Origin: Escherichia coli
GTDB taxonomy: Bacteria > Pseudomonadota > Gammaproteobacteria > Enterobacterales > Enterobacteriaceae
Assembly (NCBI RefSeq): GCF_003334315.1
Contig: NZ_QOWR01000020.1
Length of the DNA: 64,000 bases
Reading direction: 5' to 3' (one strand)
Below are positions 22,552-22,657 of the stretch, piece after piece; the stretch's first letter is position 1, and every line of letters starts with the position of its first letter. Position numbers and translations under genes: made by a program. The notes under the pieces are model-generated. The model saw only the letters and a program-made list of their open reading frames with translations, ran no database searches and was not told the origin of the DNA.

Positions 22552-22657
22552 AGCAAACTCTAAGCAGTAAGGAATGGCGCGAAGTGTAGCACAGGGGAAG
22601 GGTGGGATTATTGATGTGTGCGGGGTTGCCCCCGCACGATTTCAGACTGTGTATGAT

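Follow-up and report, generated by a model that had tools for sequence, protein, structure and literature searches.

A U-tract-less stem-loop in the glpK-glpX spacer of Escherichia coli as the probable protective 3' end of a Rho-terminated glpFK mRNA

Introduction

A GC-rich stem-loop located between two genes can be compared with several known systems. In canonical intrinsic terminators the hairpin is followed by a U-tract, and the RNA is usually released 7-9 nt after the stem. REP/BIME elements act as 3' mRNA stabilisers, the malE-malF REPs being an example. RNase E, in turn, favours a single-stranded AU-rich context directly after a stem-loop, with RN↓WUU as its cleavage preference. A further class was described by Dar and Sorek in 2018: Rho-dependent transcripts that end precisely after stable stem-loops devoid of a U-tract, with C exceeding G downstream (PMC6061677). 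These stem-loops protect the transcripts against PNPase and RNase II (PMC6061677).

Here, we examine a hairpin in the spacer between glpK and glpX of Escherichia coli, within a 64-kb stretch of DNA referred to below as the window. Similarly to the Dar and Sorek class, the glpFK stem-loop is situated directly before a precise 3' end, lacks a U-tract and is followed by a region where C exceeds G, with bicyclomycin-sensitive read-through nearby; the difference is that, for the glpFK end, dependence on Rho, PNPase or RNase II is presumed. With canonical intrinsic terminators, such as that of glpX, it shares a GC-rich hairpin at the end of the unit and a sharp 3' end, and it is equivalent in position to the true post-glpK terminators of Atlantibacter, Cedecea and Buttiauxella, but the U-tract is missing and the RNA ends 4-5 nt after the stem. 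Like REP/BIME elements, it is an intercistronic GC-rich palindrome able to block 3' exonucleases, and real REPs are adjacent to it; unlike them, it is single-copy, unrelated in sequence and invariant; the number of REPs next to it, in contrast, differs from strain to strain. We propose that this hairpin forms a protective stem-loop at the 3' terminus of the glpFK mRNA, which would be Rho-terminated and belong to the Dar and Sorek class, a reading to which we assign a probability of about 65%.

Results

Over the 191 bases around the hairpin, the window shows 100% identity to E. coli strain CP53, and RefSeq annotation of matching E. coli genomes identifies the neighbouring genes as glpX and glpK. 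The hairpin sits in the 170-bp spacer between them; on the transcribed strand, the order is the glpK stop, a REP, a short REP-like palindrome, the hairpin, a 66-nt spacer and the glpX ATG (Table 1). The repeat finder returned arms at 22618-22625 and 22630-22637, each of 8 nt, 100% complementary and separated by 4 nt, and the + strand of the whole element reads GTGCGGGGTTGCCCCCGCAC. An earlier reading of this DNA, made from the sequence only, had reported a 20-nt perfect inverted repeat at this place. The hairpin is indeed there but, since its central TTGC is not self-complementary, it consists of an 8-bp stem with a 4-nt loop and is not a 20-nt perfect palindrome. The tails, ACACATCAAT on the - strand and GATTTCAGAC on the + strand, carry no T-run. 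On the sense strand, the tail after the stem, ACAUCAAU, has only 2 U among 8 nt and hence no U-tract, short of the at least 5 U in 8 nt after a hairpin that define a canonical terminator, and the consensus terminator scan did not flag the hairpin at 22618-22637. With no T-run on either strand and a silent scan, the sequence-only reading was right that this is not a canonical intrinsic terminator.

Table 1. Features of the glpX-glpK region, in window positions
Feature	Position	Strand	Remark
glpX canonical intrinsic terminator, TTCCAGTCCTTCGGGACTGGAA then TTTTTTT	21492..21520	-	contrast case
glpX CDS	21541..22551	-	RefSeq annotation of matching genomes; contains the published Rho region (~22185)
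Untranslated C-rich, G-poor tract, hairpin to glpX ATG	22552..22617	-	candidate Rho loading (rut) region; includes the CATCAATAAT block and the glpX promoter
glpX transcription start (A)	22575	-	MG1655 4115603; 5' UTR of 24 nt
glpX extended -10, TGcTACACT	22583..22591	-	-16 to -8 relative to the mapped start
glpFK RNA 3' end (...CCCCGCAC-ACAUC-3')	22612..22613	-	MG1655 4115641 (Term-seq) and 4115640 (SMRT-Cappable-seq)
Stem-loop GUGCGGGG-GCAA-CCCCGCAC	22618..22637	-	8-bp stem, GNRA-type loop; 3'-terminal hairpin of glpFK mRNA
REP-like palindromic units, glpK 3' UTR	22654..22714	-	number strain-variable
glpK CDS	22722..24230	-	stop TGA 22722-22724; start coordinate inferred from the 1509-nt RefSeq gene length

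The hairpin is real and goes beyond chance. Its pattern, with up to 2 mismatches allowed, occurs once in the 64-kb window against 0.05 occurrences expected in shuffles. On the - strand, folding energies are -16.9 kcal/mol (z = -4.5) for the 20-mer and -18.4 kcal/mol (z = -5.7) for the 30-mer with flanks, and 0 of 200 shuffles are as stable as the latter. When the whole spacer is folded, the hairpin is retained in both the MFE and the centroid structures.

The REP-like units lie upstream of the hairpin on the transcribed strand; on the + strand, the hairpin precedes the first of them by 16-20 nt. This first unit is a short CCGGAT..ATCCGG palindrome, CCGGATGCGTATCCGG, at 22659-22674, and a full REP follows at 22682-22713. 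The spacer carries 1 REP unit in K-12, 2 in the window strain and 3 in O157:H7, while the hairpin and the sequence downstream of it are nearly invariant. The Rfam scan of 21400-25400 (E <= 10) returned no family covering the hairpin, only the REP-derived nucleoid-associated RNA naRNA4 at 22681-22745, which overlaps the end of glpK and scores 44.7 bits, below the gathering score of 59.5, and a chance-level LPR69 hit at 22635-22708 (E 1.7; 18.2 bits, the gathering score being 40), which overlaps only the last 3 nt of the hairpin. A 40-nt query covering the hairpin region was present in every one of 5,426 complete genomes of E. coli, the median number of places per genome being 1. Being single-copy, the hairpin is therefore not a dispersed repeat, and its identity as a member of a repeat family (REP/BIME or Box C-like) was rejected. 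Separately, two overlapping terminator-like hits (GC stem, TTTTT) were found antisense to the 5' part of glpX at 22444-22463 (+); they are probably chance matches in coding sequence.

Published K-12 data place a strong 3' end immediately after the hairpin. Term-seq by Adams et al. 2021 (eLife, PMC7815308, Supplementary file 1) lists an end at 4115641(-) with the string ...GTGCGGGGGCAACCCCGCACACAT[C]AATAATCCCT. The format of these strings is 50 nt, the end nucleotide and 10 nt, as verified on the thrL entry, and MG1655 coordinates were converted to the window with the printed 61-nt string and a gap-free alignment downstream of the hairpin. The Term-seq end thus falls at window 22613, 5 nt past the stem. 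It collected 548,119 reads in LB at OD 0.4, against 86,731 at glpX's own terminator on the same strand, and 24,586 reads in M63, and it is not listed on the LB OD 2.0 sheet (PMC7815308). Its label there, 'orphan', is due solely to its position more than 50 nt beyond glpK (PMC7815308). Independently of Term-seq, SMRT-Cappable-seq in rich medium by Yan et al. 2018 (Nat Commun, PMC6131387, Supplementary Data 1, Rich_TTS) shows a glpF-glpK primary transcript running from 4118161 to 4115640, with 694 reads from that start site and the end labelled 'novelTTS' (PMC6131387). Hence a stable stem-loop directly precedes a precise steady-state 3' end, situated 4-5 nt after the stem; neither of the two methods distinguishes processed from terminated 3' ends. 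For comparison, the 3' end of the glpX terminator is at MG1655 4114522 in both data sets (PMC7815308, PMC6131387). The glpFK end is recorded individually in these two genome-wide supplements, and we found no paper discussing it: full-text searches for the glpX/glpK intergenic region and for glpX start sites returned nothing, glpK and glpX entries are absent from the TERMITe supplements, and the RIL-seq sRNA prediction of Bar et al. concerns the glpX 3' UTR only.

The SMRT-Cappable-seq counts also show how few transcripts continue into glpX. At 4115640, 174 reads stop, and a further 98 end in the 50 bp that follow; 19 reads pass, and their median read-through is 699 nt (PMC6131387). The end is therefore sharp by these counts, as 174 of the 291 reads reaching the site end at one position, and in rich medium only about 7% of the glpF-initiated reads that reach the hairpin end continue past it. 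Furthermore, the same study reports a glpX-only primary (5'-triphosphate) transcript from 4115603 to 4114522 (PMC6131387). Its start lies 37-38 nt beyond the glpFK 3' end, 7 nt after TACACT and 24 nt before the ATG.

These data bear on the possibility that the end arises by endonucleolytic processing of a glpFKX polycistron, with RNase E cutting at CAUC↓AAUAAU and the hairpin stabilising the upstream glpFK fragment. The mapped end falls within the invariant AU-rich CATCAATAAT directly after the stem-loop, in the kind of context that RNase E favours, and both mapping methods are blind to the difference between processed and terminated ends. Against such a cut, the glpX mRNA, captured as a 5'-triphosphate primary transcript, begins at 4115603 and not with a processed 5' end at 4115640, the kind of end, abutting the 3' end, that is expected of RNase E or RNase III processing. 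In addition, only about 7% of glpF-initiated reads pass the site, the bicyclomycin response described below points to termination and not cleavage, and the local sequence matches the RN↓WUU preference poorly. We consider processing by RNase E improbable. The sequence-only reading had suggested an RNA processing or stability element of glpFKX. The link to RNA end formation or stability stands, while a processing site inside a polycistron does not fit the stop counts (174 at the site and 98 within 50 bp after it, versus 19 passing) or the separate primary transcript of glpX.

The mapped glpX start agrees with the position that had been predicted beforehand from a conserved -10 motif. The consensus promoter scan did not detect the glpX promoter, because it has no -35 element; the Shimada promoter list gives only glpFp for this region, and the Ettwiller Cappable-seq supplements yielded no match for glpX or for these coordinates. 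Relative to this start, the hairpin is located at about -62 to -43. It was previously suggested to be part of the glpX promoter region; it does abut that region but stays outside the core promoter, in which the extended -10 at 22583-22591 is the element that can be recognised. Thus the end mapping proposed by the sequence-only reading as a check is available in published K-12 data, which show a strong 3' end 4-5 nt past the stem as well as the glpX start beyond it; a transcript end is mapped near the hairpin and, as shown below, the hairpin is conserved in relatives, the two points on which that reading depended. Overall, its interpretation is partly supported.

A scan of species-representative Enterobacteriaceae genomes with GlpX gave 80 loci; glpK is adjacent to glpX in 53 sequences, the window included. 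The motif TGTGnTAnACT, which contains an extended -10 element (TGn + TAnACT), is present in 53 of 53 glpK-glpX sequences, 42-44 nt before the glpX ATG in 52 and 54 nt before it in one. In the 54 nt preceding the promoter, 47 of the 53 have a hairpin of -10 kcal/mol or below, and in 43 of the 53 the pre-promoter segment folds at z < -2 versus shuffles. The conserved feature is therefore a post-glpK hairpin followed by the glpX promoter. The E. coli-type hairpin followed by the invariant CATCAATAAT was found only in Escherichia, Citrobacter and Salmonella. Other genera have unrelated GC hairpins in the same slot, mostly CCCTCTCC..GGAGAGGG repeat units, and Atlantibacter, Cedecea, Buttiauxella and Entomohabitans have canonical hairpin plus T-run terminators in the same spacer, with the same promoter downstream.

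The CCCTCTCC..GGAGAGGG palindromes were observed in Enterobacter, Kosakonia, Leclercia, Lelliottia and Phytobacter, often followed by CCGGGGTGAGGG, 30-120 nt before the glpX promoter (loci L011, L026, L029, L030, L036, L048, L054, L061, L066, L075, L076, L078 and others). From their sequence they look like members of a putative dispersed repeat family that fills the functional slot held in E. coli by the hairpin. At other loci, recG and not glpK lies directly upstream of glpX, as at L052 (recG 335-2452) and about 25 further loci, in genera that include Klebsiella, Raoultella, Trabulsiella, Pluralibacter and Yokenella. There, TGTGnTAnACT is mostly absent; it is retained in L014, L081 and L083, without the E. 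coli hairpin. This distribution suggests that the TGTGnTAnACT promoter belongs to glpX and may travel with it.

Within E. coli, alignment of six strains shows an invariant hairpin and a nearly invariant hairpin-to-ATG block with one variable position, whereas the REP content differs. Among the Escherichia, Citrobacter and Salmonella sequences, each folded, 19 of 21 retain the hairpin at about -9 to -23 kcal/mol. In three (L015, L033, L037), one G and one C are lost as a pair, leaving 7 bp; in L017 and L034 the terminal pair is frayed; in L008 and L020 the base of the stem is extended by 2-3 pairs, L020 also having a C-C mismatch and a sense-strand G-U; and in L022, L024 and L028 the stem is remodelled with a 6-nt insertion. 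The hairpin is lost in L027 and L018. Since MAFFT gaps inside the G and C runs made the registration of pairs unreliable, formal covariation counting was dropped and the sequences were folded singly; clean double substitutions, that is Watson-Crick covariation in the 8-bp stem, were found in none of the 21 folded sequences. The variants support what appears to be selection for the sense-strand structure, and because the entire hairpin-to-ATG block is conserved, conservation alone does not single out structure.

One strain, E. coli PSJ-12 (NZ_AP027622.1; L086, ~200-262), has its hairpin interrupted in the 5' arm by an IS4-like IS421. Since the rest of the region (3' arm, CATCAATAAT block and glpX promoter) is intact, this strain is a natural hairpin knockout.

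A role at the DNA level can be weighed against this pattern of variation. The GC-rich palindrome could bind a dimeric regulator of the glpX promoter, with its centre near -52, or could be a piece of a REP/BIME; its placement at about -62 to -43 of the glpX start and its proximity to the REP units are compatible with either. However, the variants keep pairing over sequence, through paired G/C loss, stem extension and a G-U that pairs only on the sense RNA, and unrelated hairpins take the same slot in other genera. Moreover, a median of 1 place per genome across 5,426 genomes and a REP-derived Rfam hit that does not cover the hairpin argue against a REP/BIME piece, and the glpX promoter motif also occurs without the hairpin where glpX follows recG. 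A DNA-level role thus seems very improbable.

Downstream of the hairpin, the 66-nt untranslated tract up to the glpX ATG contains 24 C and 8 G (C/G = 3.0); among the 66-nt windows taken from the two strands of the 64-kb window, this ratio ranks at the 99.8th percentile. A Rho termination region was reported at MG1655 4115213(-), inside glpX (Adams Supplementary file 2, PMC7815308). It corresponds to about window 22185, 428 nt downstream of the glpFK end, a position that is imprecise given the 800-nt windows used. The counts were 934/95 without and 709/683 with bicyclomycin (BCM), giving a Rho score of 9.47 (p = 1.7e-105), and those 3' ends from Term-seq that lie up to 500 nt from a Rho region were regarded as Rho-associated (PMC7815308). 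Calculated over 800-nt windows, this score is too coarse to locate the release site and is not specific to the glpFK end or to transcripts initiated at glpF. The Rho region may act on glpK read-through, on RNA started at the glpX promoter or on both, and some of the response to bicyclomycin could concern the RNA from the glpX promoter.

Within this tract, Escherichia, Citrobacter and Salmonella show no variation in the CATCAATAAT block at window 22603-22614 (- strand CATCAATAATCC), which contains the mature glpFK 3' end. The block may serve as an A/T-rich upstream promoter element, or it may be recognised by a nuclease or bound by a factor.

The main rival of Rho termination followed by trimming is an intrinsic terminator that works without a U-tract. 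RNA would be released at or just after the stem, maybe with the aid of NusA/NusG, and the downstream Rho activity would only clear read-through. The sharpness of the end, with 174 of 291 reads at one position, would fit such a terminator, as would a stem stability equal to that of real terminators. Atlantibacter, Cedecea, Buttiauxella and Entomohabitans, moreover, have canonical terminators in the same spacer, and termination at this place could therefore be the conserved function. However, the stem is followed by only 2 U in 8 nt, the consensus scan makes no call, the RNA ends 4-5 nt past the stem, closer than is usual for intrinsic release, the 98 reads scattered over up to 50 bp downstream are as expected of diffuse termination with incomplete trimming, and nearby read-through is strongly bicyclomycin-sensitive. 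We regard intrinsic termination at the hairpin as rather unlikely.

Discussion

The observations are best explained if the hairpin is the protective 3' end of a Rho-terminated glpFK mRNA. Transcription initiated at the glpF promoter would pass through glpF, glpK, the REP unit or units and the hairpin, and then enter the C-rich, G-poor untranslated tract. Rho most likely loads on this C-rich spacer and would halt RNA polymerase across the next tens to hundreds of nucleotides; such diffuse termination fits the 98 reads that end within 50 bp downstream as well as the few longer ones. The heterogeneous ends would subsequently be trimmed by PNPase and RNase II, both acting 3'-to-5', until they meet the very stable GC stem and its GCAA loop, which would stop them. 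It would thus be Rho, and not the hairpin itself, that frees the polymerase, and the blockage of exonucleases that sets the end, in this order. The expected outcome is a sharp end 4-5 nt past the stem and a glpFK mRNA shielded from decay. Since the upstream REP units could act as further exonuclease barriers, the contribution of the hairpin may be partly redundant. Under this mechanism, glpFK and glpX would mostly form two transcription units, glpX being transcribed from its own extended -10 promoter.

A more speculative proposal, which we hold with little confidence, is that the hairpin, the invariant CAUCAAUAAU and the C-rich tract together make up a tunable gate or, alternatively, a truly U-tract-independent terminator in E. 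coli. In a gate, read-through from glpFK to glpX would be set by condition-dependent loading of Rho, governed for example by translation of glpK or glpX or by a factor that binds the AU-rich block. If so, glpX would be coupled to glycerol induction under some conditions only.

The significance of this reading is modest: it explains a conspicuous hairpin of a textbook operon, and it offers a clean, conserved case in which to study the way that Rho-terminated mRNAs have their ends defined by U-less hairpins. The read-through of about 7% in rich medium is relevant to the modelling or engineering of glycerol metabolism and of the expression of glpX (fructose-1,6-bisphosphatase II). Collectively, the data suggest that what is conventionally called the 'glpFKX operon' consists of two largely separate units, glpFK up to the hairpin and glpX with its own promoter.
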